A stretch of 64,000 bases of DNA from a virus. The notes beneath the pieces were generated by a model. It saw only the letters and a list, made by a program, of their open reading frames with translations. It was not told the DNA's origin and did not search any database. Within the stretch, counting starts at the first letter, position 1, and each line of letters opens with the position of its first letter. The stretch covers positions 4,677-68,676 of IMG/VR virus record IMGVR_UViG_3300010354_000003, one strand, 5' to 3'. Positions 2,817-53,102 of the stretch are shown here, one piece after another. Made by a program: the position numbers and the translations under genes.

Positions 2817-5125
2817 GCCCGAATTCCTTCGCGCTGGATTTTGCTCGCAGCCTCCGCATCACGGATCGCAAGCTTTTGGTTTGCTTCTTGTTGCTTCATA
2901 ATCATCTTCTGTTGGTGTGTTTGGTAGTCCATTTCCAACTTGGCTTGACGCTCGGCACGTTGGGCCTCAATCTTTGCAAGGACATCGGGAGGAACCCCTC
3001 CTGCTGTAGCCTCGACCGCTTGACCTTGTGCCATAGCGGCCTGCTGGGCCTGCATCTCTTGGGCCTGTAGTTTCTGAACCTTGAGTGTTCCGTTGTGCAG
3101 AATTTCGTCAGCTTGCTGGAGCATCTTGCGGAACATGGCAGCCTCTTGACGCAGAAGCGGGTCTTGAGACATGCGCTCGACGTGTTGAGCCATGTGTCCG
3201 TTAAGGTTGTTGATGCCTGGCAATGTCTGGGCAATAGACATCGGATCGACTTCAAGTGCGTCTTGAGCTTGCGTAACAAGCGGGTTGAGTGCTTGGGCGT
3301 GAACCTTGGCATGAACAAGATCGTTCTGGCCGTCAATGACAGCAATTTGTCCGCCTTGCACTAGAACGTTGTTTTCCACTTGAGCAAGAGAAGCATCCCA
3401 TGTGGGCGTCTCCGTTGCGCCAGGCTGTATTGCGTAACGTGCTGCATTCTCGTATCCAGCGGTTTCCGAAGCAATATCCCAAACAAGGTTCTGTTTACCG
3501 AAATCCGGCAGCGAACCGAATATAGCCATAAGCCTATCGTAAGCAATCATACGTGCTGCCTCCGAGCCAGCACCGACAGGCTTGGTAACGCGAAGGCGAT
3601 CCGTATCAAGCGCAAAGAATGCTTGCAGATATCTGTCTTTGGCGCCCACTCCCTCCGATCCTCGCATAAGCAAACGTTTGTGAAGCTGCGAGATATAAGT
3701 GCCGCCAGGCTCCAGCGCATCGTAGTCACGGCGCTTCATCCGCTTAATCATCTCACGCATCAAACTCTCCCACGGGTCGAAGAACAAATTCAAAGCTGAC
3801 ACGCTCATTTTAGCAATATTGCTAAGTTCAGCGCGTACTTGTGTAGCCGACTTCTCGATGCTTGTGTTTACCAAAGACTCCGTGTTGTAGGCAGACGTCC
3901 TCTCGCGGAACAACTGGGTAAATGCGTTAACAATCGGCAGGGTTCCGTTAGATACGTTGGGAACTATAGTATCCTTAATGACCTCAATTCCTGGAGAAAG
4001 CAAATTGTAGACTCCATTTGGGATGAATTGCATCTCCTGCAATGCCGTCTCGTCTTTGGGCTGGAACGTGGGGGCGGAACCAAACGATGCAATCTCCAGC
4101 AGCGAACAGTATGCGCGGTTAAGCGCACCGTTAATTGCGAACACATCATAACCTTGTCCGCGTATGCCATGATAGTATCCGTTAGTTCCGACTCCGTATG
4201 TAAAGACTGTATACGCTTGATACGCATTCTCAAAGCGCCCGATCTTCTTGTATAGGAAGTCTTGCGCTCCGTTGTCGTCCACAATCATAAAGTGCGAAAC
4301 CTTGTCGTCAAACTCCTTGACCCACAAATGCACAACCCGGATCGATTGCTGGTTCGCGGCTTGCGTGGTAAAATACAAGTCGTTGTTGCGAAGCTCAATT
4401 TCAAGCTTCTCCCAATCGTATTGGCGGAAGTTATAATAATTGTTGTTATTGTTGACGCACTGGATAATTGCACGACGACACGCCTCCACGTTGAATCCAT
4501 TGATGGTGGCAGTCTCCTCGTCCTTAATCAGTTGGTAAAGCTGTGTTGGGCTGTAGAATCGCAAGCAAGCAGCCACATCGATATTCTCTTGCCCAACCTC
4601 TGTCTTGCGGGGAATTTTGAAGTCTGACATATCGGTGGCTTTCCACCGCCAGTCCCACTCGTCGTTGAACAAAGCAATTCCTACGCCGTGTTTGATGAAC
4701 GCGTTGCAAAGTTTCAAATAGGTCGGGAAGAAGTTGCGCCACGAACGGATGCAGGCAGTAACTTCTTGGGCAACAACATTCTCAAGCTCGTCGCGCTCGA
4801 CTTGAGGCCCGTAAGTAGTCGGGCAACTGAAGAACGTTTGGGGAGCGTTGATGATGTCGGTATATCCCGCAAGGGCTGTATCCAAGACTTGCTTGGCGAA
4901 TCCCCACGACACGTTAACGCGATAACCTTGTCCCGCGTTGATAAGCGCCCTCTCGTCGTAGGGTCGCTCGTTGTCGTAAGCCGCGTCAATCTTGCTGCGG
5001 TCAAATGCCGATACGGCATCCGCTCGTCGTAGTGTCTCCCAAACCTCATAGGCGCTCTTGGCGTCTTTTATCCTCGATACGGGCGGTTTGCCCGACTCGG
5101 AAATTGTTTCCAATACATCGCTCAT
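2813..5125 (-). CDS. Portal (head-tail connector) protein
   Basis: 770 aa, helical, Gln-rich coiled-coil C-terminus, 'DNDLVHAKVH'-type segment; position upstream of scaffold and capsid. Confidence 0.8.
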   Translation of the reverse strand: MSDVLETISESGKPPVSRIKDAKSAYEVWETLRRADAVSAFDRSKIDAAYDNERPYDERALINAGQGYRVNVSWGFAKQVLDTALAGYTDIINAPQTFFSCPTTYGPQVERDELENVVAQEVTACIRSWRNFFPTYLKLCNAFIKHGVGIALFNDEWDWRWKATDMSDFKIPRKTEVGQENIDVAACLRFYSPTQLYQLIKDEETATINGFNVEACRRAIIQCVNNNNNYYNFRQYDWEKLEIELRNNDLYFTTQAANQQSIRVVHLWVKEFDDKVSHFMIVDDNGAQDFLYKKIGRFENAYQAYTVFTYGVGTNGYYHGIRGQGYDVFAINGALNRAYCSLLEIASFGSAPTFQPKDETALQEMQFIPNGVYNLLSPGIEVIKDTIVPNVSNGTLPIVNAFTQLFRERTSAYNTESLVNTSIEKSATQVRAELSNIAKMSVSALNLFFDPWESLMREMIKRMKRRDYDALEPGGTYISQLHKRLLMRGSEGVGAKDRYLQAFFALDTDRLRVTKPVGAGSEAARMIAYDRLMAIFGSLPDFGKQNLVWDIASETAGYENAARYAIQPGATETPTWDASLAQVENNVLVQGGQIAVIDGQNDLVHAKVHAQALNPLVTQAQDALEVDPMSIAQTLPGINNLNGHMAQHVERMSQDPLLRQEAAMFRKMLQQADEILHNGTLKVQKLQAQEMQAQQAAMAQGQAVEATAGGVPPDVLAKIEAQRAERQAKLEMDYQTHQQKMIMKQQEANQKLAIRDAEAASKIQREGIRA

Positions 5126-10509: not shown

Positions 10510-11135
10510 CTATCGGAGCTTTTCCAGCAATGTGTAAGTTTCTTGAAATCGTTTTTAAGTTCTTCGCTCAACCCATCCCTTTGAACATCCAAAGGAACGT
10601 GAACCGCAGATTTTAACTCGCAAGAACATACGAGGCAAGCACCCAGATTCCTGTCGTTGGATGTCTTTCTGTCCCCCAATACTCCGTGGATTAGCGATAA
10701 TACGCCACCCATACACGCACCGCACGAAAACTGGAGCGTCACGTTGTTCGGACATCCCGCGCAGATGCTAGCGCGTCTCTCTGCTTCGTCTTGCGAAACG
10801 AACGCAGCCTTGCCGTTCAATACTTGCATCGCCCATGACTTGATCATGTTTAGGAACGACAGCACGGCTTGTAGCGACAATCTCCTACGAACAATCTTAT
10901 CAAGTGAAACAGGCTTGCACATCTTGCCCCAATTGTTCTGCACACACATCTCGGAAATCAACTCCTCCTCCCAGTCTGGAGACAGTGCAATATTGTTTGC
11001 TAGACAATGGTTAACGTAGTTCTTAATGAACGCCTTGTAGTCGTAGTGCTTGAGTTTAAGTCCCGTGACTGGATGTGTGTAGCGCCACTCGCCTGGCGGG
11101 CAAGTGGACTTGTCAGTGTATGTGTATTGGATCAT
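10506..11135 (-). CDS. Cys-rich hypothetical protein
   Basis: CAGC, CGAC and CLVCSC motifs; C-terminal HCWK. Confidence 0.7.
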   Translation of the reverse strand: MIQYTYTDKSTCPPGEWRYTHPVTGLKLKHYDYKAFIKNYVNHCLANNIALSPDWEEELISEMCVQNNWGKMCKPVSLDKIVRRRLSLQAVLSFLNMIKSWAMQVLNGKAAFVSQDEAERRASICAGCPNNVTLQFSCGACMGGVLSLIHGVLGDRKTSNDRNLGACLVCSCELKSAVHVPLDVQRDGLSEELKNDFKKLTHCWKSSDR

Positions 11136-14100
11136 TACTGTCCGTAGATGCGTTGCAGTTGTCGTTCCGCTTTCTGCCGCGCCTCGGCTTGGTCTTTAAC
11201 ATCCTTTGCCATCCTCTTTACCATTCGTGCAACGTCCGCGTCATTTAATCGCATAGTGTAGAGCGTTTCGCTCAATGCCGCAAGGATAAGAACCCTCTGT
11301 TCTTCTTCCGTGAGCGAGTCCATAATCTCGTCGTCCGACAAATCTTTTAGCCTGTCAAACGACTCTCTGGCTTGGCTTGGAAGAATATCAAGCATACCAA
11401 GCGTGGAATCTGCTCCAGGTCCAGTATAGCGATACATTGGGGCGCGTTCCTTGCGATACTTCTCCCAAGACATAATCTCACCCTTGTCGTCCAGCACGTT
11501 TTCGCTTTGCGTCTGAATCTCGTAGAAATATGCGGCTGCGTTTACAGCGTCGATTAGCCTTGTTTCCGCGTAGGCAGAATAACCACCGACAAAGATGTTC
11601 GATGCAACCTCACCCAAGAACTGGCGGAATACGCGCCTTTCTTTTTCAAGCCGCTCTTCCTCGTCCGGTTCTTCCATATCCACGCCAAGCAATCCGTATG
11701 CGGCAGCGGCAATACCACCAGTAAGGAATGGCAATGCGTAGCGTCTTACTCCGTGGAAGATAACAATTCCAAGCAGTGTTCCTGCCAATCCCTTTGCGGC
11801 GACTTTCTTCTCGTCCGTATCCCCGTAGGATATATCCCGCAAGTCGGAAAGGATACGAGAGCGTTGCTGGATTACGAACGACGAGAATGGCATAATCATC
11901 GTCTTGAGAAGATTTCCACCGCCGCTGTCTCCTCGTTGAGCGAATGTTGCCATCTTGGTCGGGTCGGACGAGCCTTGGTAGATGTCGATCATTTGGTCTG
12001 CGTAAAGACCAGCCTCTACGCGGCTCCTATCTCCTTTAGCAATAAGATCAGATTCGTTGTCCCAGTTTGTGAATTGGATGTCGTTGTCTTTAAGATATTT
12101 CTTGTAGTAGGAAATCCATCCGTGCGATGCGGCAACCGTGTCGGAAATTTTGAGCGGAATCAGCCAGAAGTTGTTAAGATTCTCGAAAGCTTCCATTGCT
12201 TTGGGCCACAAGCCATCTTGCATGAACTGCTGTAGCTTGGTGAAGTTGCCCTCAAGCTGGTTGACCCACTTTGAGCCGCCTGCAATCTCACCGCGTTCAC
12301 CGATGGAGAACTGGCGCATCGCTGGCAATGCCGCCTTGATTTCCGTGAAGGCTGGAGTCGTGATGCTCAGATCGTTTACGTTGGCAATCGTTGTGGCTAC
12401 TTGGTCTGGCATCTGCTTTGCCGCCTGCCCAATACCTCCGAGTGCGATACTCGTTCCGATCTTGCGAACCATATTCGCAACAAAGTCCGCAGCTTGGTTG
12501 AACGGGTCCATTTGGTAAATCTTGCGCTCGCGGGAATCGGATAGGTTATTGATTCGTTTCGTGACGAAATCGTAGTTCTCTACACCACCGAGCGCCTCCA
12601 CTGCTTCGGGAGACTTTAGGAATGCGTAGACTTGCTGCCAGCCTGGATTTGTATACGCCGCCTCAAGCTGCGTTGACAAGGAATCCAATACGTTTCTGGT
12701 AAGGTTGTAGTCAAACTGCTTTCCTTCTGGCAATACGCTGTTCTTGATGCGCTTGATTGAGTTGGGCGCTTGTTTCGGGGCGGTAACGCTATCGGATGCC
12801 CGTCCGCGCAGTTCCCCTGGCTTCTTGGGTTCTGTTCCGATGGAGCGGTAGCGGATTGGAAGGTAATACGGATTCTCGTAGTTCTCTGTCTGGTTGTTAA
12901 AAAGCTCGTCGTGTTCTTTAAGCAGCGGCTTGTATTCGGGTAGAACCTCGTTCATCAAGAACGTCAAAGCCTTGTAGTTTGCTGGATGCAGTCTGTTTAG
13001 ATTGTCCAAGATGCCTTGGATGGAGTCAGCGTAAACCTCGTCCAAAGCCTTCTCGATATACAGCGCAGTCTTTCTGTCCTCCGTCTTTGGTGACTTCTTT
13101 TTCTTCTCGATGTCTTTTTCTATCAAACCGCGCATTCTTTGTATGCCTTCAGCTTCTGTCTCGTCGGGGTGGATTTGGATGAGATTGCCAGCAACGCCCA
13201 TCGAATAGACGCCTTGTGTTTCAGCAATCCTTTGACCTGTTTCCTTTTCGATTTGCTTGAATCGCTGCTGGACGCCATCCGTGATTTCGCGCCTTGCCCT
13301 GTTTGTGTTGGCTTGCCCGCGCTCAATCTCACCAAACCCCATCTGGTAAAGAAGCCTTGGAAGTCCTTGTGTTCCTGTAAGATTGCGGAATGTGTCTGCG
13401 AATGATTGCGTTCCAAGATTGACCAGCCTTCCGAAGTTCTCTCCAAGAAGGTTCTCGTAAACCTTTAATGTCGCGGAGTTGCGTTTGATTGTCTTGGAAT
13501 CTTTTGCAGCCTCAACCGCTCCAATCTGCCCCCTCGCCATAGATGCAAACTTTTGAGCGCCGAGGAACTTATTGTTAACAAGAATGTTGTTCGCAATCTT
13601 GATAAACTCCTTTCGTTCCCCAATGCTGATATCGGACAGCGTGATGCGCTTCATATCGTCCAAAACAACCTTCTCTTCAGAAGTAATTTCTGGATTATCG
13701 TAATTGATCAGTGCAACTTGCGCCACTTCAGCCAATCCGTTTATCTTTTGCTCGATGCGATTGCGGCGCTCTTCGTCTCTTGCAAGCTCGGCATCAATCT
13801 CTTCTGGTGTCTTATCTGCAATCGCTGCAAGCTCGCCGTCCATTCCAAGGTTTTCCTTAGCCTTGCGATTTGTTTCAATCTGTTCGCCAAGCTTTGTTAG
13901 GAAGTCGGTAATCTCTGCGTCAGGCACAAGGACGTATTCCTCTGCCGTGACGGGGCCACCCGCCTTCATGTATTCCTTCAGAACTGCTGTAAACTCTGCG
14001 ACAGAGATTGGCGTCTCCCCCTCCACCTCAACCATCTCTTCCGGCTCTATTTGTCGCGGTTCGATATTCGCAAGCTTTTCGAGGTTGGCTTTAATGTTAG

Positions 14101-17100
14101 CAGCCAATCCTTTTTGCTTTGCCAAACGCTTGGCAGATTTAATTGCTGACTTGGCATCAGATAAATCCTTCTCGTAGTTGGCGTTCTCGATAACCTTGTT
14201 CGCGTAGTTAACGAATCCAAGGATAGACGCCTCGTTGTCGAACTGCGTCTGCAATGCCTTGCTGGTAATAGCCCTAAGTTGTGACGGGCGGACCTTTCCT
14301 CGGATAGCAGCCTCGCGCAGTTGCTGGGTTAAGTCCTTTGCGAACTCGCGCTGGGTGCGCTTATCCTCCTTGCGCTTCCTTGCGCCCATTCTGATCTGGT
14401 CCTTCAGCGCCGTCATCTCGTTTACAGTCAACTTCGTCTTGGGGCGCTTCACGCCTGTAGAGATGTCGATGATGTTCTGCATCTTCGTGCGGCGTTTCGG
14501 GCGCTCTGCGGGGGCTTCCTCTACTACTGCTTCTGGTGCTGGGGTTGGTTCGGGTGCCATCTTCAGCACTCCTTCGCGCATCTCGCGAATGATCCTTTCC
14601 CCGCTGTTGAAACGCTTGTATCCGACATTGAATACAGCCATCGCGCCACGGTCAGAAAGCATGATGTTCGTCTTGAGGAGTCGGTTGATGATCTTCTTGA
14701 TGGTGTCCTTTAGCTTCTCCCACGCGGTCAGCCCCCTCTTCGTCCTTCTGATAAGCGAGGCAAATGCCATAACTTCCCGCTCTTCAATCTGAACTTCGTT
14801 GGTTTCCTTGTTGTAGCCCTCGTTTACGATGCGATCTATCTCTGCGCGGGCCTCATCCGGCATGCTTTCCAAAAAGCTTTGGAAGTCGGCTTGGAACTGC
14901 GGGTCGGAGTAGATGTAGTGACCGAGTTCGTGGGTGAGGATGTCTTCGATGTTCTCGCCCCTCTGGATGTAGGCGCGGTTGAGGATGATCTCCCCACTAT
15001 CGGGGTCGTAGCCAGCCTTGAACTCGTAGTCTGGATCATCGGTATTGTTAACAATTACAAAGTTTTCCGGCTTCTCTCCACCGAAGAATCGGATGGCGCG
15101 ACCAGATGCCTCTCTAAATGTGTAGCGATCCGCTTCTGGGACGGGTGTGTATTTCTCTTCTGCGCGAAGCTCTGATGCCATGTATCTAATGTCGCGAATC
15201 CCAGCCCCGCCAACTATTCCCCTCGGACGAGCTTGCATCTGAGGATTTTTAACAAAGACGCGAGAACCAACCATGATTGCTTCATCGCCGCCAACAACGG
15301 CATTCTTTGAGCGCACATCTACAAAGTAACTTGAACGGATTGGATTGTAACTAACCTCAGTCCAAACATCTGGGTTATTGATGTCTGCTGGCAGATTGGT
15401 AATCGGCTCGTAGTTGCCTTTGACTGTGGCAAGAGGAAATTTTACAGCACCAGTTGCAATATCAATAGCCTCGCCCTTCCCAGAAATAGAGCGAGTCATC
15501 ATCTTTGGATTAATGACTTTTGCCGCGCCAAGGTAAGATATTGGAGTCCCTACACGAGTGCTTGTCTCTGGAACTGGCTCATGCGCCGTTACGGCATATA
15601 CCGTATCTCCAGCAGCAGTAGATCGGTTGTATGTCGGAATATCTATTCTGAACTCTACCTCTTTGCCGCTTTGTATTGGTGCATTTACTTTGCTTCGTTT
15701 ATCTTCTCCAATGTATTTATCTATTTTATCTTTTGTTGGAATAGATTCAGCGCCTTTAACTGTAAAGGGATCAATGGAATCAATTAAGTCTGCGTATTCT
15801 CCAGCAGTAATCTCACCATTTTTCAGTCTTACAGCAGCAACGGCAAGTTCTGGATTCCTTGCCATTACTTTATTGGAAGATGCTTTTTGGAATGCCGTTG
15901 TTTCCTCTGGAGTTTGCGGCGTTATTTTTGTTGGAGTAGCCGCCATCTTCCGCACTCCCTTGCCTCTAACAATCTTAATATCTCCAGCCTCTACAGTCTG
16001 CACCTCGCCAGTCCGCTCATTGCGGATGCTGTAGTATTGTTCTCCAAGCTCTGCCTCTCTTGCGCTTTGAGGCAGCACTTCTTCTACTACGAAGCTCTGT
16101 GGTGTGGTCTTGGTCTTGACGCGGTTGCCTATAGCGATGCCTGCGGGTTCTTCCTGCTCTCTAAATTTTCTAGATGCCTCTGCTTGCTGTAAAACAGTTT
16201 CCAATGATGCGGGGGGTTGCTCTTCCAGCGCCTTGCGGGTTTTAGCATCTTCCGTCATTGCTGTAGCAGGAGCAACCTCTGGCTCAAGAACCGCTATGGC
16301 TTTTTCATAGCGGGAACGAAGAGATGGTTTAAAATTTTCTACATTACGAATGTTCTCGCGAAGATCAGCCAATTTGATCTGTGCTGCTTCGGGATTTTGG
16401 GCAACACGATCAATAAATTGAGCGTATGTTTCGCCTTCTTTTCTGCTTACCACATCCACCAATCCCGCAACATCATCACCGAATTGAGACCTAACCTCAT
16501 CCAGTGTCATCTTGCCATCTTCCACGGAATCGTGAAGAAATGCAGCTGTCTTTAGTTTGTTGTTGGGCATTTGCTCCGAAACTCTGCGGAGGTGATTGAT
16601 ATATGGCTCCTGCCCGTATAAATCTTGAGCGAAATCTTCTGTTGCTTTTTGCTCTGCTGCCTGAACCGTTTCTGGCGCGACTTCTATGACTGCTGGCTCT
16701 ACCGCCCCTTCTGCCGCAACAACTGGCTCTACAGGGGCTACAGCGGCCTCTGGTGTAGGTGTTACAAGAGGGGTCGTTACGGGAGTGGGGGCTGCTGGTG
16801 CGGCGGCAACCTCCGCAGCCCTCTCTTCTGGAGTCAGTCTGGGTAGCGGTGCGCCAGCCCTCTGCATTACCTCTTCTCCTCGCGGGGTGATAACATTCTG
16901 CCCGTCTTGGATGTTGACCAACCCTTGTCTTGCGAGACGGACTACTTCTTCGTCTGTCGCGGTGTTGTCTGCGACTCGGGAGAGAGATTCTGCTTGGGCG
17001 AGTTCTTCGCGCAATGCCTCCGCTCCTAATTGCGATCTGCGGATTCTTTCGTCCTCGGCAAGCTGTTGCTCGATTGTAATCGCGGCTTCCTCTGCACGGC

Positions 17101-18838
17101 TCGGGCGGCGAATCTCTGCGAATACATCCCCCTCTGCTGGTTCTGGTGCCGTGGCCAATGCTTCTTCCGTAGCGCGGCGGACTCCACCGACCATCTCCTC
17201 GCCTTGCAGTTCTCGGCGCAAAAGATCGCGTCCCTCTGGTGTACGGCGAAGAACATCTGCGCGGCGGGCGGCTTCCTCGATTACTTGGGCGGATTCAAAT
17301 GCGGGACCGCTGGGCGGCATGGGGCGCCTTCTTACGTCCGCAAACACGTCGTAAATGTCAGCCTCGCGCCCGTATGTGGCACCAGGCGTTTCTGTCGGCA
17401 GGACGTCTGTAGGCAGCTTCCTTGCCCTTGCTTGCTCTGCGCGGAACTCTGCAAGTGCGTCGAGTGCGTTCTGTGAGAATACCCTTGTCTCCTCGTCTTC
17501 GGATTGCAACTGCTCGCGGAAGTTCGCCTCCGTCTCCGCAATCGACTCGGGGGTCATCCTTGCAAATGCCGCCTTGAATTCCTCTTTCGGAGGCTGGACG
17601 TATGGTTCTTCTTCGCGGATGGGGACTGTCGGGCGTGTGGCTGCTTCCGCATCTTCGATAGCCTGCTCGGTTGCTGAGATGTCTTTTTCTGTCGTAGCAG
17701 CTTTCTGACCAGCGGCACGGATTGCTGCGGCGGTCTGAGGTGCGTTCGCCTCATCCGCCTTGATTGCCGCATCTTCTGCGACAGATGCTTTTTGGATAGC
17801 TCCAAGAGGTGCGCCCACTCCGAATCCAGCGATGCCTTCCAATGCACCAGACGAGAACACGCCACGGGTTGTGGGAACCTCCATCCCTTCGCGCTGCAAT
17901 GCCAAGTTGGCGGCAAGTTGCTCTTGCGCTCCTTGTGCAGCTTCTGGGAAGGCTTCTGTAATACCAGTCTTGAGTGCGTTGCCGATACGGCTCTTGCTTG
18001 CAGCTACTCCTGTTTTCGTAAGTATTCCTCCGATAATCTTTTCCGCTCCAGTCGTTGCCGCAGCAGCGCCGAGTCCAGCGCCGAGCAGAATCTGGTCGAG
18101 GTTCTTGCCTCCGTATTCTTGCGCCTTAACAGCTTGTTGGTGTGCGGCATCCTCGCTCAATCCTTGCGAGATGAGTTCGTTCTTAACCTCGTCGTAGATG
18201 GTTCCCTTAACAACACCAGCCCCCATACCAGCACCGATGCCAGACTGGGCTGCTGCCATCTGTCCTGCGGTAAGTCCCCTTGCCGCCGCCGCTCCTCCAC
18301 GGATACCAGTTACAGCAAGCTTTGCTGTATTTGCTGCGAGTCCACCGACAATAACAGGAGCCATCGTCCCGAGTGCCTGCACGGTCATATCGACTGGTGC
18401 AACGGAGAAAGCTTTAACGCCAGCCATGACTTGATCCAGTACACCCTTGTCCTGCGCGTCTTGCATGATGCGGGCAATCTCTGCTTGGTCTTCCTTGGCT
18501 TGCGCCGACATAAGATTGCCCAAATAGTCCTCCACTCCACGGATGGATTGGGATACAGGGTTATCTGCTCCAGCAATGTCCGTAAACATTCTTACGCCTT
18601 GTGCGGCACCTTTGGCTAATCCTACGGGAATATCAGCGGCTTGTCGAAGCAAACTATCCCCAGCGGGCTTGGGCTTCGGTTTGAACATCTCCTCAACAGG
18701 GGGAAGCAACTTAGCCTTTCGCTCGGCAGGCTCCTCGTCGAAATATGTAATCTTGCGACGTTTGGGCTGCGTTAATGGAGTCTGGCGAAGCGGAGATGCG
18801 AAGTCTTCCTCTTCTTCATCTAGGTAGGTGATAGGCAT
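11135..18838 (-). CDS. Giant polyvalent internal virion/ejection protein with RelA/SpoT HD hydrolase and HExxH metallopeptidase-like domains
   Basis: 2567 aa; Gly/Ala hydrophobic N-terminal region; PYINH...AAFLHDSVED...IKLADLREN; ILTHELGH; helical C-terminus. Confidence 0.8.
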   Translation of the reverse strand: MPITYLDEEEEDFASPLRQTPLTQPKRRKITYFDEEPAERKAKLLPPVEEMFKPKPKPAGDSLLRQAADIPVGLAKGAAQGVRMFTDIAGADNPVSQSIRGVEDYLGNLMSAQAKEDQAEIARIMQDAQDKGVLDQVMAGVKAFSVAPVDMTVQALGTMAPVIVGGLAANTAKLAVTGIRGGAAAARGLTAGQMAAAQSGIGAGMGAGVVKGTIYDEVKNELISQGLSEDAAHQQAVKAQEYGGKNLDQILLGAGLGAAAATTGAEKIIGGILTKTGVAASKSRIGNALKTGITEAFPEAAQGAQEQLAANLALQREGMEVPTTRGVFSSGALEGIAGFGVGAPLGAIQKASVAEDAAIKADEANAPQTAAAIRAAGQKAATTEKDISATEQAIEDAEAATRPTVPIREEEPYVQPPKEEFKAAFARMTPESIAETEANFREQLQSEDEETRVFSQNALDALAEFRAEQARARKLPTDVLPTETPGATYGREADIYDVFADVRRRPMPPSGPAFESAQVIEEAARRADVLRRTPEGRDLLRRELQGEEMVGGVRRATEEALATAPEPAEGDVFAEIRRPSRAEEAAITIEQQLAEDERIRRSQLGAEALREELAQAESLSRVADNTATDEEVVRLARQGLVNIQDGQNVITPRGEEVMQRAGAPLPRLTPEERAAEVAAAPAAPTPVTTPLVTPTPEAAVAPVEPVVAAEGAVEPAVIEVAPETVQAAEQKATEDFAQDLYGQEPYINHLRRVSEQMPNNKLKTAAFLHDSVEDGKMTLDEVRSQFGDDVAGLVDVVSRKEGETYAQFIDRVAQNPEAAQIKLADLRENIRNVENFKPSLRSRYEKAIAVLEPEVAPATAMTEDAKTRKALEEQPPASLETVLQQAEASRKFREQEEPAGIAIGNRVKTKTTPQSFVVEEVLPQSAREAELGEQYYSIRNERTGEVQTVEAGDIKIVRGKGVRKMAATPTKITPQTPEETTAFQKASSNKVMARNPELAVAAVRLKNGEITAGEYADLIDSIDPFTVKGAESIPTKDKIDKYIGEDKRSKVNAPIQSGKEVEFRIDIPTYNRSTAAGDTVYAVTAHEPVPETSTRVGTPISYLGAAKVINPKMMTRSISGKGEAIDIATGAVKFPLATVKGNYEPITNLPADINNPDVWTEVSYNPIRSSYFVDVRSKNAVVGGDEAIMVGSRVFVKNPQMQARPRGIVGGAGIRDIRYMASELRAEEKYTPVPEADRYTFREASGRAIRFFGGEKPENFVIVNNTDDPDYEFKAGYDPDSGEIILNRAYIQRGENIEDILTHELGHYIYSDPQFQADFQSFLESMPDEARAEIDRIVNEGYNKETNEVQIEEREVMAFASLIRRTKRGLTAWEKLKDTIKKIINRLLKTNIMLSDRGAMAVFNVGYKRFNSGERIIREMREGVLKMAPEPTPAPEAVVEEAPAERPKRRTKMQNIIDISTGVKRPKTKLTVNEMTALKDQIRMGARKRKEDKRTQREFAKDLTQQLREAAIRGKVRPSQLRAITSKALQTQFDNEASILGFVNYANKVIENANYEKDLSDAKSAIKSAKRLAKQKGLAANIKANLEKLANIEPRQIEPEEMVEVEGETPISVAEFTAVLKEYMKAGGPVTAEEYVLVPDAEITDFLTKLGEQIETNRKAKENLGMDGELAAIADKTPEEIDAELARDEERRNRIEQKINGLAEVAQVALINYDNPEITSEEKVVLDDMKRITLSDISIGERKEFIKIANNILVNNKFLGAQKFASMARGQIGAVEAAKDSKTIKRNSATLKVYENLLGENFGRLVNLGTQSFADTFRNLTGTQGLPRLLYQMGFGEIERGQANTNRARREITDGVQQRFKQIEKETGQRIAETQGVYSMGVAGNLIQIHPDETEAEGIQRMRGLIEKDIEKKKKSPKTEDRKTALYIEKALDEVYADSIQGILDNLNRLHPANYKALTFLMNEVLPEYKPLLKEHDELFNNQTENYENPYYLPIRYRSIGTEPKKPGELRGRASDSVTAPKQAPNSIKRIKNSVLPEGKQFDYNLTRNVLDSLSTQLEAAYTNPGWQQVYAFLKSPEAVEALGGVENYDFVTKRINNLSDSRERKIYQMDPFNQAADFVANMVRKIGTSIALGGIGQAAKQMPDQVATTIANVNDLSITTPAFTEIKAALPAMRQFSIGERGEIAGGSKWVNQLEGNFTKLQQFMQDGLWPKAMEAFENLNNFWLIPLKISDTVAASHGWISYYKKYLKDNDIQFTNWDNESDLIAKGDRSRVEAGLYADQMIDIYQGSSDPTKMATFAQRGDSGGGNLLKTMIMPFSSFVIQQRSRILSDLRDISYGDTDEKKVAAKGLAGTLLGIVIFHGVRRYALPFLTGGIAAAAYGLLGVDMEEPDEEERLEKERRVFRQFLGEVASNIFVGGYSAYAETRLIDAVNAAAYFYEIQTQSENVLDDKGEIMSWEKYRKERAPMYRYTGPGADSTLGMLDILPSQARESFDRLKDLSDDEIMDSLTEEEQRVLILAALSETLYTMRLNDADVARMVKRMAKDVKDQAEARQKAERQLQRIYGQ

Positions 18839-30806: not shown

Positions 30807-31673
30807 CTAATATCTTTCAATCCAAGAGTTCATCTCTTCTACAGTATAGCATCTTCCCTGCAATATCAAGTCCGCCCGCAGCATTGCTACCACAAGATGC
30901 GGCTCCTTGGATTTATACTCGTAGTTGTTGAAGACAATCTTGTGGCCGTGCTTGGGATATTCTGGCTTGGCTGTAAACGATTTATTGTTGAACGAGAACG
31001 AGAGTTCTCCGTGAGTTATATGTTTCTTGTTATTCCTCAAGAACACGCAGTCGAAAGCATACAGGCAGCACTCTTGAATGCAGCTGTGCTTTAATCCCTC
31101 GCAAATGGCGTTGGGCGAGCTTTGATTGCCAATGAATAGGGCAGACCCAGCAATAGCCTCCGCGACCTCATACAGGTCTTTTGTGGGAAAGTATTCGACA
31201 TTCCCGAATAGCGAACAAAAATCTTGATGCTCTTCGGGTAGTCCGACGAATACGATATCATCCTTGAACTCCTCGACTATCTGCCTCCACGGGAAATATT
31301 CACCGTGCCACCTTGCCCCGCGAGCAACAACAATCTTTCCATTTGTGTATTTGTTTGGATTCTGAACAGAAATCCACGGCTTGTCCAAATCCGGCTTTAC
31401 CATCATCCATCTAGCTACCCTGCTGGCTATGTTCTCCCCGTATCGCATGCCGCCGTTGCGATATGTGGAAATGTCGTGGTCTATTTTTTCCCCCTCATGT
31501 TTGTGGACAGATATGCCCTGCTCCTCCAAGAGTCTTTGGAATAGCGGAATCCTATCCTCAATAGGCTTTGTCCACGGTCTATTGCCGATAAAAAGCCTCT
31601 TGGTTTGCTTCTCTTGCAATGTAGGGATGGAATAGACAATGTCGCCTATGCAGCCGGAATGGAACGCGTTCAT
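30807..31673 (-). CDS. Second GT9-like glycosyltransferase
   Basis: HSGCIGDIVYS and DLYEVAEAIAGSALFIGNQSSPNAICEGLKH; paralog of 9562..10509. Confidence 0.75.
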   Translation of the reverse strand: MNAFHSGCIGDIVYSIPTLQEKQTKRLFIGNRPWTKPIEDRIPLFQRLLEEQGISVHKHEGEKIDHDISTYRNGGMRYGENIASRVARWMMVKPDLDKPWISVQNPNKYTNGKIVVARGARWHGEYFPWRQIVEEFKDDIVFVGLPEEHQDFCSLFGNVEYFPTKDLYEVAEAIAGSALFIGNQSSPNAICEGLKHSCIQECCLYAFDCVFLRNNKKHITHGELSFSFNNKSFTAKPEYPKHGHKIVFNNYEYKSKEPHLVVAMLRADLILQGRCYTVEEMNSWIERY

Positions 31674-32919: not shown

Positions 32920-33269
32920 AATCAATTGTTTTGCTGCTCGCGTTGTTGTTGGTTTCGTGTTCCGAAAACCCGCCGGCCGATATTCCTGCATGGGTTGGAA
33001 AATACAAAAATGCATGCCTTCCAGAAGCCATTGCAATGCAGTCTGGACTTCGCGGTTCTGGGATTGAAAGCAAGGTGCTGATCGTTCAAACAGACAAATG
33101 GAACCATGCGGTTTGCGTTTATGTGTTTAATGGAAAGCTGTTTGTTTGGGACAGCTATTGGAAAAGCAATCAAGTTCGTGCATGGTTTGACAATCCAAGC
33201 ATGGTTGCAAGGGAGTGGCTGGAGTTGGTTTCAGATGCTGTGGTTTTCAAGAATGGATATTATTTGTAA
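32916..33269 (+). CDS. Lipoprotein with papain/transglutaminase-like Cys-His-Asp motifs
   Basis: Lipobox LVSC; NACLPEA, NHAVCV, FVWDS. Confidence 0.6.
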   Translation: MKSIVLLLALLLVSCSENPPADIPAWVGKYKNACLPEAIAMQSGLRGSGIESKVLIVQTDKWNHAVCVYVFNGKLFVWDSYWKSNQVRAWFDNPSMVAREWLELVSDAVVFKNGYYL

Positions 33270-33308
33270 TTTTGTGTTGCGCTGTTTTTAAAATCGTGTA
33301 GATTGGTT

Positions 33309-33895
33309 GCATCCTAATGAGGAACGCAAGACTCATACAGGTCTGAGAATTTCCCTAAAAGAGAAAACCCCTGACCCGCTTGGTATCTTGCGTTACTAAG
33401 CGGGTCTTCTCTTTTGGTATGAAGCCGAGAGGCAGTTCCCTAAAAGAACCCGCAAGTTAGGATGAGCGTAGCACGGCGGGGTCCAATCCCCCGACTGCGG
33501 AGAATAACCTGGAAAGGACTCCCGTGTGAAGGAGAGGGGTCGGGAGGGTTAAAAGACTACCGACTTAAAGCGACTCTGGCAGCTATGCTGGGGACTGCGG
33601 ATCGAACTGGCTCTCCCCGAAAGGGGTAAACTAAGCAAGCCTAGGCTAAGGACGACCTCTGGGCGAGCGATCCATCAAATGAACAAGCGGCTCCAAACGG
33701 AAACGTAAAAGCATTTGGCAGTTCTCTAATTGGTAGGGAACTGCTATGCCCAAGCCCACCGCCGGAAACGCCTCAAGCATTGCAACAGGCGGGGCCATCC
33801 TAACCGCAAGCGCAGCACTGCGAGCGAGCAGTTAACAAGCTTGTTACGGATTGCAGAGCGGAAAGTCTGGATTGGGTAGGCAAAATTTGCCTAGC
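33309..33895 (+). ncRNA. Candidate large structured non-coding RNA
   Basis: No credible ORF. Upstream TTGCGC-N16-TAGATT promoter, many GNRA hairpins, 9-11 bp long-range helices, and G-U pairs consistent with the + strand. Confidence 0.65.
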
Positions 33896-33964
33896 GCAAT
33901 ACAGTAAACATTTTTACAAAAAACTGTGCATCTTGGAAAACCGTTGATACAATTTACACCACAC

Positions 33965-34360
33965 ATGCAATACGAAGAATACGCCTTGGAGATAGCGAAG
34001 ACTGTATCGAAGAAGAGCAAAGACCCTTGGAGAAAAGTTGGTGCTTGTGTATTAAGGCACGACAATTCAATTGCTTCTGTTGGATACAATGGATTTACTG
34101 CGGGGATGCCAGAAGACTGGTCTGACAGGGACAAACGAAGATTGTTTGTTATCCATGCCGAGCAGAATGCGTTGCGGTATGTAAGTCCAAACGAATGCGG
34201 ACTGATTGCGGTAACGACCCTCCCCTGCAACGACTGCCTTAAAGCGATAGCATCCTACGGGATCAAGCGCGTGGTTTACGAGGATTCCTACGAGTTTGAT
34301 TCCTCGACGGAGAGTATTGCAAAAAAGTTCGGAATAGAACTCCGCAAGATTACTTGCTGA
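33965..34360 (+). CDS. dCMP deaminase
   Basis: SKDPWRKVGA, GYNG, HAEQNAL, PCNDC. Confidence 0.93.
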   Translation: MQYEEYALEIAKTVSKKSKDPWRKVGACVLRHDNSIASVGYNGFTAGMPEDWSDRDKRRLFVIHAEQNALRYVSPNECGLIAVTTLPCNDCLKAIASYGIKRVVYEDSYEFDSSTESIAKKFGIELRKITC

Positions 34361-35018: not shown

Positions 35019-35050
35019 CTTAATTGTTAAGCAATGTATGTTTGGACTTG

Positions 35051-35260
35051 ATGAACAATGAGTGCGAGGAATGCAGGATTCTTAGGGAGGAGCGCGACGA
35101 CTGGAGGGATTGCGTAGAGAGGATGGTATGGTCCGCACCGCTGGCATTTGCCGCAGACCCGAGTTGGATGAAAGCTTTGCTAATAGCCAAGAAACTTACG
35201 GAGAAACGACTTGCAATGCGCAAGGCAATGAATTTATTGGATAACAATAACAAGATATGA
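35051..35260 (+). CDS. Hypothetical protein
   Basis: ATGA overlap with the next gene. Confidence 0.55.
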   Translation: MNNECEECRILREERDDWRDCVERMVWSAPLAFAADPSWMKALLIAKKLTEKRLAMRKAMNLLDNNNKI

Positions 35261-35439
35261 AAAAACCCACAACAAAAGCAGGAAAAGCGGCGAAAGTCGC
35301 AACCGTCATGCGTGAATACAAACAAGGCAAGCTCCACGGGGGAGTCAATCCGAAGGGGCCGAAGAAGGCACCAGTCGTCAAAAACCGTCGCCAGGCGGTC
35401 GCGATTGCCCTCCGCTCTGCTGGCGTTAAGAAGAAATAG
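35257..35439 (+). CDS. Small basic protein (KVxxVMREYKxGKLH...QAVAIAL family, DUF6496-like)
   Basis: Motif recognised from memory of the family. Confidence 0.7.
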   Translation: MKKPTTKAGKAAKVATVMREYKQGKLHGGVNPKGPKKAPVVKNRRQAVAIALRSAGVKKK

Positions 35440-35796
35440 GTTATGAATCAACAACACCCCAAACGCTTCCAAGCGCACCATTGGGGTTGCTTCTTTCCCC
35501 GTTCCTTTGCCGGACGAAGTATGCAACCAACTCGGATTGGGTTTTCCCCCAGCCAAGATGGTTGCAGAAAAGCGGTAGGCGGCATAACCACCTTCGGACC
35601 TACTCTGGGGGAGTCTATCGGCGGGGACAATCTTACCGATCAGTAAGAAAACAAGAATCCAGTAAAAGAATTACGAAAAATCTTACCGATCGGTTAATTT
35701 CGGCAAGAGTGCTGTCGCCAACCCAGTAAGCCGAGACGGGAAGTTCATCATTGCCGACAGCCACGTTTTGCGGTAGCGTCAAAACCGCACTTCCAT

Positions 35797-36045
35797 ATGC
35801 CAGCCAAACCCAAGACCGCAGACAAGGACAAACAGATCGACAACTTGATAGTCGCACTGGAGGAAGTCTCGCGGCACAACACGGAGCTATGCCACGAAGC
35901 CGCCGAACTCGCGCAAGAGATCGAAGAACTGGAAGACGAGCTAGCATTGGCCAAAGCCGACATTTCAATCATTCTGGCTGAAATGAAGAAGAACGGATTG
36001 AATATGGCATTCGTAAAGCGGTTGAAGACCACCGAACCGGAATGA
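35797..36045 (+). CDS. Coiled-coil hypothetical protein
   Basis: 82 aa with a heptad pattern; overlaps the next gene. Confidence 0.6.
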   Translation: MPAKPKTADKDKQIDNLIVALEEVSRHNTELCHEAAELAQEIEELEDELALAKADISIILAEMKKNGLNMAFVKRLKTTEPE

Positions 36046-36260
36046 AGAAAAAGACGGCAAAACCCCCCACCCCCGAAACCTTCGATATAGGGGATATACT
36101 CCCGAAAGACGCTAGCGCCGTAGACGTGTTCCTATTTCTAGCCCAAGTTGAGTCAAATTTAGGCGGATGTTTCTCGATGCAGTTCGACCCAGATTTCCTC
36201 AGAACCCTCGCAAGAGAGGTGCAAGAGTTGCAAAGCCTGCGGAACAGGGTGCTGGAGTAA
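36042..36260 (+). CDS. Hypothetical protein
   Basis: 72 aa; ATGA overlap. Confidence 0.55.
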   Translation: MKKKTAKPPTPETFDIGDILPKDASAVDVFLFLAQVESNLGGCFSMQFDPDFLRTLAREVQELQSLRNRVLE

Positions 36261-36285
36261 CCGTCTCGGGGCATATTTACACCCC

Positions 36286-36359
36286 GCCCGCGTAGCTCAG
36301 TCGGATAGAGCAGCAGCCTTCTAAGCTGCGAGTCGTTGGTTCGATCCCAACCGAGGGCG
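36286..36359 (+). tRNA. tRNA-Arg(UCU)
   Basis: GCCCGCG-TAGCTCAGTCGGATAGAGC D-arm, GCAGC-CTTCTAA-GCTGC anticodon arm, GTTGG-TTCGATC-CCAAC T-arm. One G-A mismatch in the acceptor stem; CCA is not encoded at the canonical position. Confidence 0.92.
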
Positions 36360-37210
36360 CCCCAATGTTTAGATTATGCATAGAAATCCAAGCCACACTT
36401 GAACTACTCAACACAATCCAAACAGCAGCATGACGGAATGACGGAGATGACGGATATTCCCAGAAAGCCCCTAAAACGCACGGAAGGCAGCAGACCGCAC
36501 CCAAGTATCGGAAAACAGAAGAAAACACGCTACAGACCCGAATAAACGAAAAGGAGAGGGGGATAGACAAGGGGGAGAGGATAGATATTCGGCAAGAGGG
36601 ATACCAAACAAAGAAACGAGAGGTAGGCAAATTTTTCCTAGTCAAGCAAATATGCGGATATCAGCAACATAAAGAGCAGAAAGGGCAAGAGGAGGGAATT
36701 TTTAATTTTGATTTTTAATTTCAGAATTTAAATTTTGGTTTTCCCTTAGGTCGTTTTTTGCCCCACCAGCCGCCAGCCAAGTCCCCCCACGGGTACCACG
36801 GGTGTGGTGGGGTGGGCTGTCTCGGTCCCGCTGCGGCCAGCGCCCCGCCCTCCCCTCCGGCGCCGCTGTGGGGTAGGGTTGCCCATCCGCCCGCCCGCCC
36901 GCTCGCTTTGGGTAGGGTGTCACACGGCCAGCCCATCGCACCTTGCGCCATCCCGTTGCCCGCCTTTCGATTGCAGCGCCCGCTTTGCCATAACTTCTGA
37001 TAAGTACCCTAATGCCTAATTGAACGATGCGCGAGGATGCCCGTGTTTTGCTTTGTTTCGATTGGCAAGGGTAGGACGGCGGGGGAAAATAGAACGATTC
37101 TACGTGGCGCGTAGCGTAAGCGCGGGGCAAATCGTTTCTCGGGAATTCCACACGGGGGAATGCCTGCGAGAATTGCACGGGGGAAAGTGTCGAAAAACAC
37201 GGGAAAACAC

Positions 37211-52020: not shown

Positions 52021-52923
52021 TTATTCGTTTGGTTTCCAAGTATCCCAGTCTGTTTTCTCTTTCGACAACGCATGCTCGCGTGACTTGTCTATCTCGCCAG
52101 CCCAGTTGTTGAGGAGGGTTTCCATATTCTTCCGGCAGTAGAAGTCTTTCTGCCCTCTGTTGGCGTAGTAAGCCTCCAGATATTTCCAGTCCTCGTCCGT
52201 TGTGTCGAGGTGTGGTTCGCAAAGGCGAAGCTCTTTCACGCTCCACGCGGTTGATGTTCTTCTCCCCATCAGTCCGCATGCTCGGGTTTTGAATGCTTCC
52301 AGCTTTTCGCGTTTGGGTTGCTCTGGTTTTTCTTGGCTTATTGGAAATAGTAAACCATCCGAATTTTGTTCGTGAATAACATTCGATTTCCTTTTAACAA
52401 CCTCCCTAAAGCTATCACTCATTTTCCGCATCTTGCTAAGAATAGCCTTCTCGTGTTGCCGTGTTATTATTTCATTACCATTAAAGGGTATTTCATCTAC
52501 TATTACATTGCATTTGTCTGCGGGTTTTCCACCCTGTGGGATTTCCGCAGTGTGGAATTTCCCCATGGTGGCCTTCATTGCATAACGAATTTTGACGAAG
52601 TGCCTTGTTATTTTGTTTCCATCACCAAGAACCTTTACGTCCTCTATAAAGCCAGATTCCAGTAGCTGGTTTTTAGCTTTCGAGAACCTGTCTCTACCCC
52701 AGTCCAGCGCCTTCATCATATACTCAGAAGTGGCCCACACGTTTGAGTTGTGCTGCCACTTTCTGACGTAGCAGTATGTCGTGTATAGGGCGATGCAGTC
52801 GCCTGGGTTTTGCATCTTGAGCAGCCTGTCTATTGAAGGCTTGGTTACGCCTATTAAAATATCTTCGATGCTGCCTTCCTGCATTACGTCGCAGCGCTCG
52901 TATTCCTGCACTTGGTATTCCAT
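52021..52923 (-). CDS. Replication initiator protein
   Basis: N-terminal winged-helix-like region (ALY...LDWGRDRFSKAKNQLLESGFI), a linker, and C-terminal 'ETLLNNW'; upstream of the helicase. Confidence 0.72.
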   Translation of the reverse strand: MEYQVQEYERCDVMQEGSIEDILIGVTKPSIDRLLKMQNPGDCIALYTTYCYVRKWQHNSNVWATSEYMMKALDWGRDRFSKAKNQLLESGFIEDVKVLGDGNKITRHFVKIRYAMKATMGKFHTAEIPQGGKPADKCNVIVDEIPFNGNEIITRQHEKAILSKMRKMSDSFREVVKRKSNVIHEQNSDGLLFPISQEKPEQPKREKLEAFKTRACGLMGRRTSTAWSVKELRLCEPHLDTTDEDWKYLEAYYANRGQKDFYCRKNMETLLNNWAGEIDKSREHALSKEKTDWDTWKPNE

Positions 52924-52936
52924 AGTCTATGAGGGC

Positions 52937-53063
52937 CGCAGCCCCTCTCCGCAGAAAGACCGATTGAATGTCGGGTGAAGAATAACAGAGAGGAGCCGCG
53001 ATTTGTTTCTCATTGTTTCGATTTAATCTTTCTTTTGCTTAACGCCTGTTCTTCACGCAGGCG
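52937..53063 (-). promoter_or_regulatory. Structured RNA leader of the initiator gene (loop-loop pseudoknot)
   Basis: Hairpin CGCCTG/CAGGCG whose loop (GTGAAGAA) is complementary to TTCTTCAC inside a 15-bp stem that has G-U pairs only on the minus strand. Confidence 0.7.
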
Positions 53064-53102
53064 GTGCGAATCTCTCCGCACGGGAATCAACCTATCATCC
53101 GT

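Follow-up and report, generated by a model that had tools for sequence, protein, structure and literature searches.

Very few large structured phage RNAs of unknown function are known to us, namely GOLLD and ROOL. Both of these recently proved to be self-assembling RNA cages, and any new class is therefore a ready subject for studies of structure and function. Here we describe a large phage RNA that is encoded within positions 33309-33895 of a 64,000-nucleotide (nt) stretch of viral DNA (positions 4,677 to 68,676 of IMG/VR record IMGVR_UViG_3300010354_000003; we call this whole stretch the window). The RNA is real, well supported, and uncatalogued, and it has an unusual modular design, with a leader whose two complementary loops change rapidly and a body that is exchanged for unrelated ones.

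Several smaller RNAs provide a background for the leader. The pRNA of the phi29 family is 120-174 nt long, is found in small protein-primed phages, and has a strong promoter. Two of its loops stay complementary while their sequences differ between related phages, and these loops pair between molecules on the portal. The c4 RNA of phages P1 and P7 and the CI RNA of phage P4 are short and structured; they lie at the beginning of an early transcript, and their loops are complementary to other sites in it. Their code differs between close phages and sets the specificity, and the outcome is premature termination or blocked translation. In the cobalamin riboswitch (the L5-L13 contact) and in the rep mRNAs of the IncB and IncI-alpha plasmids, a hairpin loop pairs in cis with an expression-blocking structure; in these plasmids, the loop sequence defines the incompatibility groups. 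As for the large RNAs, one report describes GOLLD as modular, with one conserved and one variable half, and states that the kissing loop of ROOL, which was first read as a tertiary contact from covariation, proved to be intermolecular, or quaternary (PMC12286853).

The RNA family and its fold

The segment was originally predicted, from the sequence of the window, to be an ORF-free, densely structured region that encodes a large, undescribed phage noncoding RNA (ncRNA) on the plus strand. This is borne out by 51 homologous loci, by compensatory changes among them, and by the lack of a matching Rfam family. No open reading frame (ORF) of 60 or more amino acids (aa) lies wholly within 33309-33895. 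The plus strand has a predicted folding energy of -225.4 kcal/mol (z = -4.95 from 20 shuffles; the minus strand has z = -3.35), and the GC content of the segment is 0.52-0.55, versus 0.42-0.45 for its flanks.

We found the family by way of a related complete genome, in which a weak match by BLAST revealed a shared motif, then exact-pattern scans (with exact 14-21-nt strings from the core as keys), and then nhmmer. With the element from the window, nhmmer identified 21 homologous loci in viral contigs, and all 30 of the loci from a metagenome scan are homologs as well (E-values of 1e-24 to 1e-110). The conserved core is present in 51 loci, with 48 distinct sequences among 54 rows, and four of the metagenome loci are identical in sequence to viral-contig loci. 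The homologs occur in phage records of ~62-69 kb, some of which have direct terminal repeats. Some other pattern matches were rejected. Two of the 14-mers had 117 and 112 matches, which were mostly due to chance (21 loci were true); the matches at L009, L012, and L015 lie within coding DNA; and the leader-scan match at L265 is an ordinary terminator before a gene.

The family seems to be confined to uncultured phages. A blastn search (word size 11) of 50,697 records of isolated phages, with the element as the query, found no match, and one exact-pattern scan of one genome for each of 185,579 species found no homolog in prokaryotic genomes. (The sole match among the species genomes, L258 from a contig of a Vicinamibacterales metagenome-assembled genome, is not a homolog by nhmmer and is due to chance.) So this one exact-pattern test did not find the RNA in cellular genomes, where prophage copies would lie.

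We aligned 41 distinct full-length sequences, using nhmmer and MAFFT (alignment A4), and searched all pairs of columns for stacked, covarying helices. The register of hairpin A is imperfect in this alignment, so we checked that hairpin sequence by sequence. The resulting model has 90 pairs in 17 helices, with three crossing helix classes. Standard pairs account for 94.7% of the cells, as compared to 86.6% in shuffles, and 39 of the 90 pairs show compensatory change, as compared to 27.9 in shuffles; none of 500 shuffles reached either value. The covariation score is 0.265 (0.120 in shuffles), and sliding the partners by 1-3 columns reduces the pairing to 36-49%. Nhmmer and covariation among homologs had been proposed as a check on the original prediction, and they favor it. 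So does strandedness: because of the G-U pairs, the 90-pair model fits the plus strand better than the minus strand, on which 89.6% of cells are canonical.

Many of the local structures that were originally proposed are part of this model, and all of the strings that were named are present where they were placed. These include the hairpins GCC-GAGA-GGC (33424-33), CCT-GGAA-AGG (33508-17), CCCC-GAAA-GGGG (33615-26), and CG-GAAA-CG (33698-705), as well as a T-arm-like hairpin (33477-93) that covaries in homologs. The body also has long invariant unpaired stretches. L238 and L016 share the 3' extension up to ~33878, L097 shares it more distantly, and the 37 other aligned homologs lack it. The proposed CCGCC/GGCGG helix of the extension is supported, as it becomes CCACC/GGTGG in L238, L016, and L097.

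The long-range part of the original prediction did not fare as well. It proposed two crossing long-range helices that switch between alternative folds. The complementary strings are there: a repeat finder lists 33432-42/33734-44 (11 nt, 100%), 33456-64/33796-804 (9 nt, 100%), and the competing 33310-17/33457-64 (8 nt) and 33718-28/33734-44 (11 nt, 91%). It also lists GGCAGTTC(C/T)CTAA at 33431 and 33717, and the direct repeat TTCCCTAAAAGA is present at 33351 and 33436, as predicted. But the two alternative folds lack comparative support. The covarying partner of 33734-44 is the local strand at 33718-28, not 33432-42: in the six sequences of the L067 clade, where the 3' strand has changed, the local strand has changed to match it and the distant one has not, and L238, L016, and L102 have no intact distant copy. 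Of the 16 RNAs with other bodies (see below), 14 retain the distant motif and none has the partner string, so the motif is conserved for a reason other than pairing with 33734-44. Similarly, the conserved and covarying partner of 33458-64 is the 5' end of the RNA at 33310-16 (3 of 7 pairs compensated), rather than 33796-804. The latter lies within the extension that is common only to three other homologs, and L238 and L016 keep ~5 complementary bases there. Another proposed helix, CTCCCG/CGGGAG, is displaced by two covarying local hairpins.

The element does not match any known family that we searched for. In the whole window, the only match to Rfam 15 (4227 models) at gathering scores is a tRNA at 36286-36359. 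In 33100-34100, at E <= 10, there are only two matches, both at chance level: a Tetrahymena small nucleolar RNA (23.9 bits, with a cut-off of 100) and a CRISPR repeat (13.8 bits, with a cut-off of 38). For six homolog loci, Rfam finds only tRNAs, which are thousands of bases away, and for examples of the type-2 and putative type-3 bodies (see below), it finds nothing near threshold. Thus the covariance search, which had also been proposed as a check, returned no family at threshold. The Rfam library presumably includes GOLLD, ROOL, OLE, HEARO, raiA, pRNA, C4, 6S, tmRNA, RNase P, and the group I and II introns. ARAGORN did not find a tmRNA in the window. We also considered a self-splicing intron (group I or II), which we rejected: the flanking genes are complete and separate, and no reverse transcriptase or homing-endonuclease ORF is present. 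This agrees with the original prediction, which did not recognize the element as tmRNA, RNase P, or an intron and saw no reverse transcriptase or nuclease gene adjacent to it. We did not find a published description of the family in the literature that we searched. A virus-wide screen for structured RNAs reports candidates of 29-151 nt, of which 8,495 are from IMG/VR, and a screen limited to these lengths would have missed this family (PMC10690425).

We also considered a peptide that might begin at the conserved ATGAAGCC motif (13 codons in the window) and rejected it: the frame is closed or its length differs in relatives, and L016 has no start codon. More broadly, the core has no codon periodicity (there are 50, 44, and 42 variable columns by position modulo 3; p = 0.68), and across the homologs the longest stretch without a stop codon, in any of six frames, is 68 aa (median). 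Two outcomes that had been named as speaking against an RNA, a DNA origin and a decayed ORF, find no support in this lack of periodicity or in the strand asymmetry.

The leader, its complementary loops, and the bodies

The leader (33310-33464, ~155 nt) is a four-armed domain, with helix P1 closing it and three arms inside. P1 has 7 pairs, with 97.5% of cells paired and 3 pairs compensated (CG/UA, UA/CG, and AU/UA), and RNAalifold predicts it independently. The first two arms, hairpins A and B, are 36 nt apart in the window (33337-33372), and their loops are complementary in all 41 aligned sequences. The complementarity extends over 6.83 nt on average, as compared to 2.96 nt for non-cognate loops, and there are 24 different codes. 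If we include RNAs with other body types, all 55 RNAs have complementary loops, with 25 codes among them, and in 54 of these RNAs the kissing segment is in a loop whose flanking stem has at least 5 base pairs (bp). All six pairs of kissing columns show compensatory change.

These codes turn over quickly. Among 40 pairs of sequences with cores that are less than 2% different (mean 0.005), the difference is 0.20 at kissing positions, 0.144 in the unpaired spacer, and 0.031 in stem B. For instance, L077 and L227 have identical cores, and half of their kissing positions differ. Because complementarity is kept while the code changes at least as fast as unconstrained sequence, we suspect selection for new private codes. 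Alternatively, the fast change could come from frequent recombination that swaps whole leaders. L259, which has the leader of L008 and the body of L010, looks recombinant.

The stem of hairpin B has 13 pairs, with 92.8% paired and 6 compensated. A terminator scan lists this hairpin as having the sequence of an intrinsic terminator (13 pairs, 7 of them G-C, and the tail TTCTCTTTTG), and in most homologs it has GGCGGG followed by TTTTTC. In the third arm, the column pair 148/175 is CG in 19 sequences, AU in 10, and UA in 7, and the near-invariant motif in this arm is kept in RNAs with other body types too.

The leader is preceded by a promoter. The proposed promoter, TTGCGC-N16-TAGATT ending at 33304, is present, and 39 of 40 homologs have a promoter there, with TTGAC, a 16-17-nt spacer, and TAxxxT ending 5-6 nt before P1 or the conserved CAU. 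The copy in the window is the weakest one, with 7 of 12 consensus positions, and it falls below the threshold of a generic scan. Given the spacing between the promoter and P1, we expect transcripts to begin with the first strand of the closing helix, which suits an RNA that uses its 5' end as part of the fold.

Sixteen further loci have the same promoter, leader, and P1, and complementary loops (16/16), followed by a different body of 350-450 nt. (These are L007, L008, L010, L011, L259-L264, and L266-L271, which were found by scans keyed on the leader and on the second body type.) Of the 12 new ones, 10 match the type-2 body by nhmmer, and this body shows compensatory changes as well. L268 matches neither body and may represent a third type. 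Six of the kissing codes occur with both body types. Also, contig G005 has overlapping ends, with 97-98% identity to the other end over bases 1-132 and 444-608. One end has a 311-nt type-1 body and the other has a 354-nt type-2 body, while the flanks and the leader are 97-98% identical. Types 1 and 2 occur here as alternative alleles of the same locus within a single assembled population; complete relatives have one copy.

Table 1. Positions of the promoter and of the RNA features in the window
Feature	Position	Strand	Remarks
Sigma-70-type promoter	33277-33304	+	-35 TTGCGC (33277-82), 16-nt spacer, -10 TAGATT (33299-304)
P1, 5' strand	33310-33316	+	First bases of the RNA; pairs with 33458-64
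Hairpin A	33317-33336	+	Stem ATGAG/CTCAT; loop with kissing code AACGCAAGA (33323-31)
Hairpin B	33373-33406	+	13-bp terminator-like stem; loop TCTTGCGTT (33386-94), complementary to loop A
Third leader arm	33413-33444	+	U-run 33413-17 and A-run 33440-44 around near-invariant ATGAAGCC-loop-GGCAGTTCCC (small hairpin 33424-33)
P1, 3' strand	33458-33464	+	Boundary of leader and body
Type-1 body	33465-33765	+	~300-nt pseudoknotted core, conserved in all 51 loci (nhmmer)
Body helix	33465-67/33610-12	+	C-G to U-A in 6 sequences
T-loop-like hairpin	33477-81/33489-93	+	Among the best-supported helices
Body helix	33508-10/33515-17	+	In the 90-pair model
Body helix	33519-22/33531-34	+	In the 90-pair model
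Pseudoknot	33535-37/33656-58	+	A-U to U-A in 4 sequences
Body helix	33539-43/33560-64	+	In the 90-pair model
Body hairpin	within ~33574-93	+	7/7 pairs compensated
Body helix	33599-604/33668-73	+	4/6 pairs compensated; crosses 33465-67/33610-12
Body helix	33615-18/33623-26	+	Among the best supported
Body helix	33639-42/33661-64	+	Among the best supported
Cover by metatranscriptome contig	33647-33837	+	One 191-nt contig, at least 99% identical, depth 2
Body helix	33696-98/33705-07	+	In the 90-pair model
Local hairpin	33718-26/33736-44	+	In the 90-pair model
3' extension	33766-33878	+	~110 nt; CCGCC 33759-63 / GGCGG 33788-92, then small hairpins
Hairpin TAGGCAAA-T-TTTGCCTA	33877-33893	+	Inverted-repeat pair; no U-run; not conserved in L238 or L016; possible 3' end structure

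Transcription and genomic surroundings

Metatranscriptome coverage had been proposed as a further check: in one run, a single contig lies inside the element (Table 1), and the rest of the 2 kb around it has no contig. The run contains 6% of the sampled words, and the comparison covered 2001 bases. We consider the contig to be a weak hint of transcription, and we give no weight to the lack of cover elsewhere.

The window is part of a complete virus record of 68,676 bp with direct terminal repeats. The terminase has only 24-27% identity, over about one-third of its length, to those of two isolates. The gap that holds the element spans ~690 bases without a gene, from the stop codon of a gene for a 117-aa protein (33269) to the ATG of a gene for dCMP deaminase (33963; Pfam match). 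A 128-aa ORF on the minus strand (33844-34230) overlaps the 3' end of the segment by ~50 nt. The neighboring genes encode a GT1 glycosyltransferase, the 117-aa protein (which has no family match), and the dCMP deaminase. The RNA is located at the switch point from leftward to rightward genes, and the minimum of the cumulative GC skew, at 31.8-32.1 kb, coincides with this change of gene orientation. Elsewhere in the window, the minus strand of 11135-18838 is a single ORF of 2567 aa.

The most constant neighbor is a 288-aa protein without a Pfam match (30807-31673, minus strand), which is a candidate partner of the RNA. Its relatives adjoin the RNA in 37 of 52 loci and are usually transcribed divergently. 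A dCMP deaminase gene is 3' of the RNA in 25 of the 52 loci, and a gene for a DnaB-like helicase lies at most 4 kb downstream in 14. In 13 loci, the next conserved gene downstream is convergent, at a median distance of 614 nt, which implies that the RNA is not bound to any particular gene downstream; in some loci, the RNA is followed by hairpins of its own.

The slot between the two flanking genes varies. Relatives of the 117-aa protein are found in four loci, none of which has the element at that place, so the element is not fixed to that neighbor. Full-length relatives of the 117-aa protein and of the dCMP deaminase are encoded in two loci that lack the element (L002 and L003). In these, a small ORF that starts with MKAT.EF.LP follows the 117-aa gene in place of the RNA (L003, 4150-4360; L002, 3490-3770), which indicates that the content of the slot is variable. 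In the window, an 11-nt inverted repeat (33273-83/33893-903; 91% complementary) brackets the element and overlaps the -35 box, and weaker inverted repeats are located just outside (33242-65/33919-42). These may mark the boundary of a cassette or may be due to chance.

The only tRNA gene that ARAGORN finds is tRNA-Arg(TCT) at 36285-36362, which is 2.4 kb downstream of the element with five small ORFs in between. These ORFs overlap each other (60-82 aa; plus strand), lie in an A-rich, GC-rich stretch, and are followed by the tRNA gene; the whole arrangement covers 35024-36362.

The window contains a second leader of the loop-loop kind, at 52924-53065 on the minus strand, before a gene for a replication initiator (52021-52923, minus strand). 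It has a hairpin, GCCTG-CGTGAAGAA-CAGGC, with a loop that is complementary to TTCTTCAC within a long stem that ends just before the ATG. Judging from the sequence, this stem seems to bury the ribosome-binding site. The corresponding leaders in two other genomes, G007 (L280) and G008 (L281), also have complementary loops, with other codes. In these phages, then, the loop-loop leader is a portable device, which is found before a protein gene as well as before an RNA body and has a different code in each place.

Possible functions and relation to known RNAs

The element is probably a free-standing ncRNA gene of ~570 nt (33310 to ~33878, plus strand), with a leader that gates expression and a body that acts in trans; we hold this with only moderate confidence. 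The design of the leader and that of the body are shown by comparing homologs, and the functions are inferred from it. The host's sigma-70 RNA polymerase would transcribe the RNA from the promoter in Table 1. The leader would act as a gate and as a stabilizer of the 5' end: hairpin B and its U-run would stop some of the transcripts, and the contact between loops A and B would determine the number of polymerases that continue past it. The variable code would restrict this contact to a single leader. The body would then bind a host or phage partner in trans. That unrelated bodies are alleles behind the same leader fits a payload under changing selection.

Several observations weigh against this reading or limit it. 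The 5' and 3' ends are placed only by the promoter position and by conservation, and the single RNA-library contig, at depth 2, could be carried-over DNA. The structure was derived from the same alignment on which the pairs were counted. The 41 sequences correspond to perhaps a dozen clades, so there are fewer independent compensatory events than the cell counts suggest, and several of the core helices never vary. The model leaves out two alternatives, 33466-73/33742-49 (8 bp) and 33467-71/33495-99, which show no covariation (and the second is broken in L228 and L232). Since we fished for homologs with exact keys, the invariance of the key blocks is partly by construction, and the diversity of the family is underestimated. 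Also, the U-run of hairpin B is interrupted in the clade of the window (TCTTCTCTTTT), and part of it is needed for the third arm. So the loop-loop contact could be purely architectural.

The main alternative is that the loops pair between molecules, as in pRNA, ROOL, and GOLLD, to form dimers, rings, or cages, with the code preventing mixing with co-infecting relatives. We consider this somewhat unlikely. In its favor, the kissing positions change at least as much as the spacer, which is under no constraint; drift in an internal contact would hardly explain this, and the loops are on two long arms of one junction. Also, the intermolecular kissing loop of ROOL makes self-assembly a serious possibility (PMC12286853). 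Yet hairpins A and B are so close, within a domain that is closed by P1, that pairing within the molecule is simplest (sequence comparison cannot tell cis from trans), and the swapping of leaders by recombination, as in L259, could explain the fast change. A cis-acting role is less probable still: the entire 0.6 kb would be an attenuator or antiterminator leader of the rightward early operon, with no function as a free RNA. It would account for the terminator-like hairpin, for the location directly behind a strong promoter and ahead of plus-strand genes (with the dCMP deaminase next in 25 of 52 loci), and for the similar design before the initiator gene. It does not account for the 13 loci in which the next conserved gene is convergent, for the loci where the RNA's own hairpins follow, or for a ~300-nt body with pseudoknots and long invariant loops. 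Furthermore, a leader that is matched to one gene would not allow unrelated bodies to be exchanged while the flanks are kept.

We think it quite improbable that the element is an RNA-primed replication origin, in the manner of RNA II of ColE1, with the long structured transcript as the primer and the 5' hairpins as the site at which copy number is controlled. Both of the complementary loops belong to one strand, and a consensus scan, which a weak promoter could escape, found no promoter-like site on the minus strand over the leader and a single one inside the body. An origin would fit the size of the RNA, the kissing hairpins at its 5' end, and the sister leader before the initiator gene. It would also fit the location at the switch in gene direction and the GC-skew minimum, with a DnaB-like helicase within 4 kb in 14 of 52 loci, but the turn in GC skew coincides with the change of gene orientation. 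Within 33300-33900 we see neither an AT-rich unwinding tract nor an array of iterons, and an origin that is matched to its replication proteins could hardly tolerate unrelated bodies between near-identical flanks. The element might also act as DNA, as a set of protein-binding repeats, a recombination cassette, or a decayed gene; the body does behave as an exchangeable cassette. There are also three copies of an 11-mer (at 33432, at 33718, and inverted at 33734) and the bracketing inverted repeats. We nevertheless find a DNA-level element highly improbable. The compensatory changes keep the pairing, and some of the pairs are G-U, which on the opposite strand would read A-C. The conserved promoter keeps its place relative to the first helix, codon periodicity is lacking, and the distant 11-mer is conserved in RNAs that lack the other copies.

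Going beyond a free-standing RNA with a gating leader, we tentatively suggest that the leader may be an RNA "address label": a hypervariable, self-complementary 7-base code by which the RNAs of one phage would recognize each other, or their own nascent copies, and ignore the RNAs of co-infecting relatives. This would drive either the assembly of multimers or copy-sensing autoregulation through terminated leader transcripts, with unrelated bodies (at least two and perhaps three types) being exchanged in an arms race with the host. We regard this as a speculative idea. If it is true, these RNAs would form a class of phage RNA system that is new, modular, and addressable, and not just one more family. 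In any case, the variable code leads to a testable prediction about RNA self-recognition or autoregulation, and the exchange of bodies suggests that the payload is under diversifying selection, perhaps through conflict between phage and host. The family comprises ~50 natural variants in which covariation is clear, and it has its own promoter, pseudoknots, and long invariant loops.

Among the known systems, the RNA most resembles GOLLD and ROOL, in kind and not by membership: it is encoded by phages, is several hundred nt long, and has many covarying helices, pseudoknots, and kissing loops. Its modularity is the reverse of GOLLD's, as here the 5' part is constant and a large 3' part is exchanged. 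The element does not match the covariance models of GOLLD or ROOL at gathering score or at E <= 10. GOLLD and ROOL are located beside tRNA genes or arrays, while here there is one tRNA, 2.4 kb away. Unlike them, it is found, in the blastn search and the one exact-pattern scan described above, only in contigs of uncultured phages and not in the records of isolated phages.

The leader has parallels of its own. Like the phi29 pRNA, it belongs to a phage RNA with a strong promoter and a variable but complementary pair of loops; in contrast to pRNA, the RNA is ~570 nt, is found in phage records of ~62-69 kb, and has no Rfam match. With c4 and CI it shares loops that are embedded in a leader and a code that differs between close phages. 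However, it does not match Rfam's C4 family, its complementary sequences are in two hairpin loops that are 60 nt apart, a structured body of 300 nt follows instead of genes, and no prophages were found (in one exact-pattern scan). As compared to the cobalamin riboswitch and the IncB and IncI-alpha rep mRNAs, there is no evident ligand-binding aptamer or antisense RNA gene, and what would be blocked is an RNA body; the second leader, at 52924-53065, is the only case with a protein gene. Two features have not been described for the known classes: a loop-loop code that changes faster than neutral sequence and yet is always complementary, and the exchange, in a single phage population, of unrelated bodies that follow the same leader.

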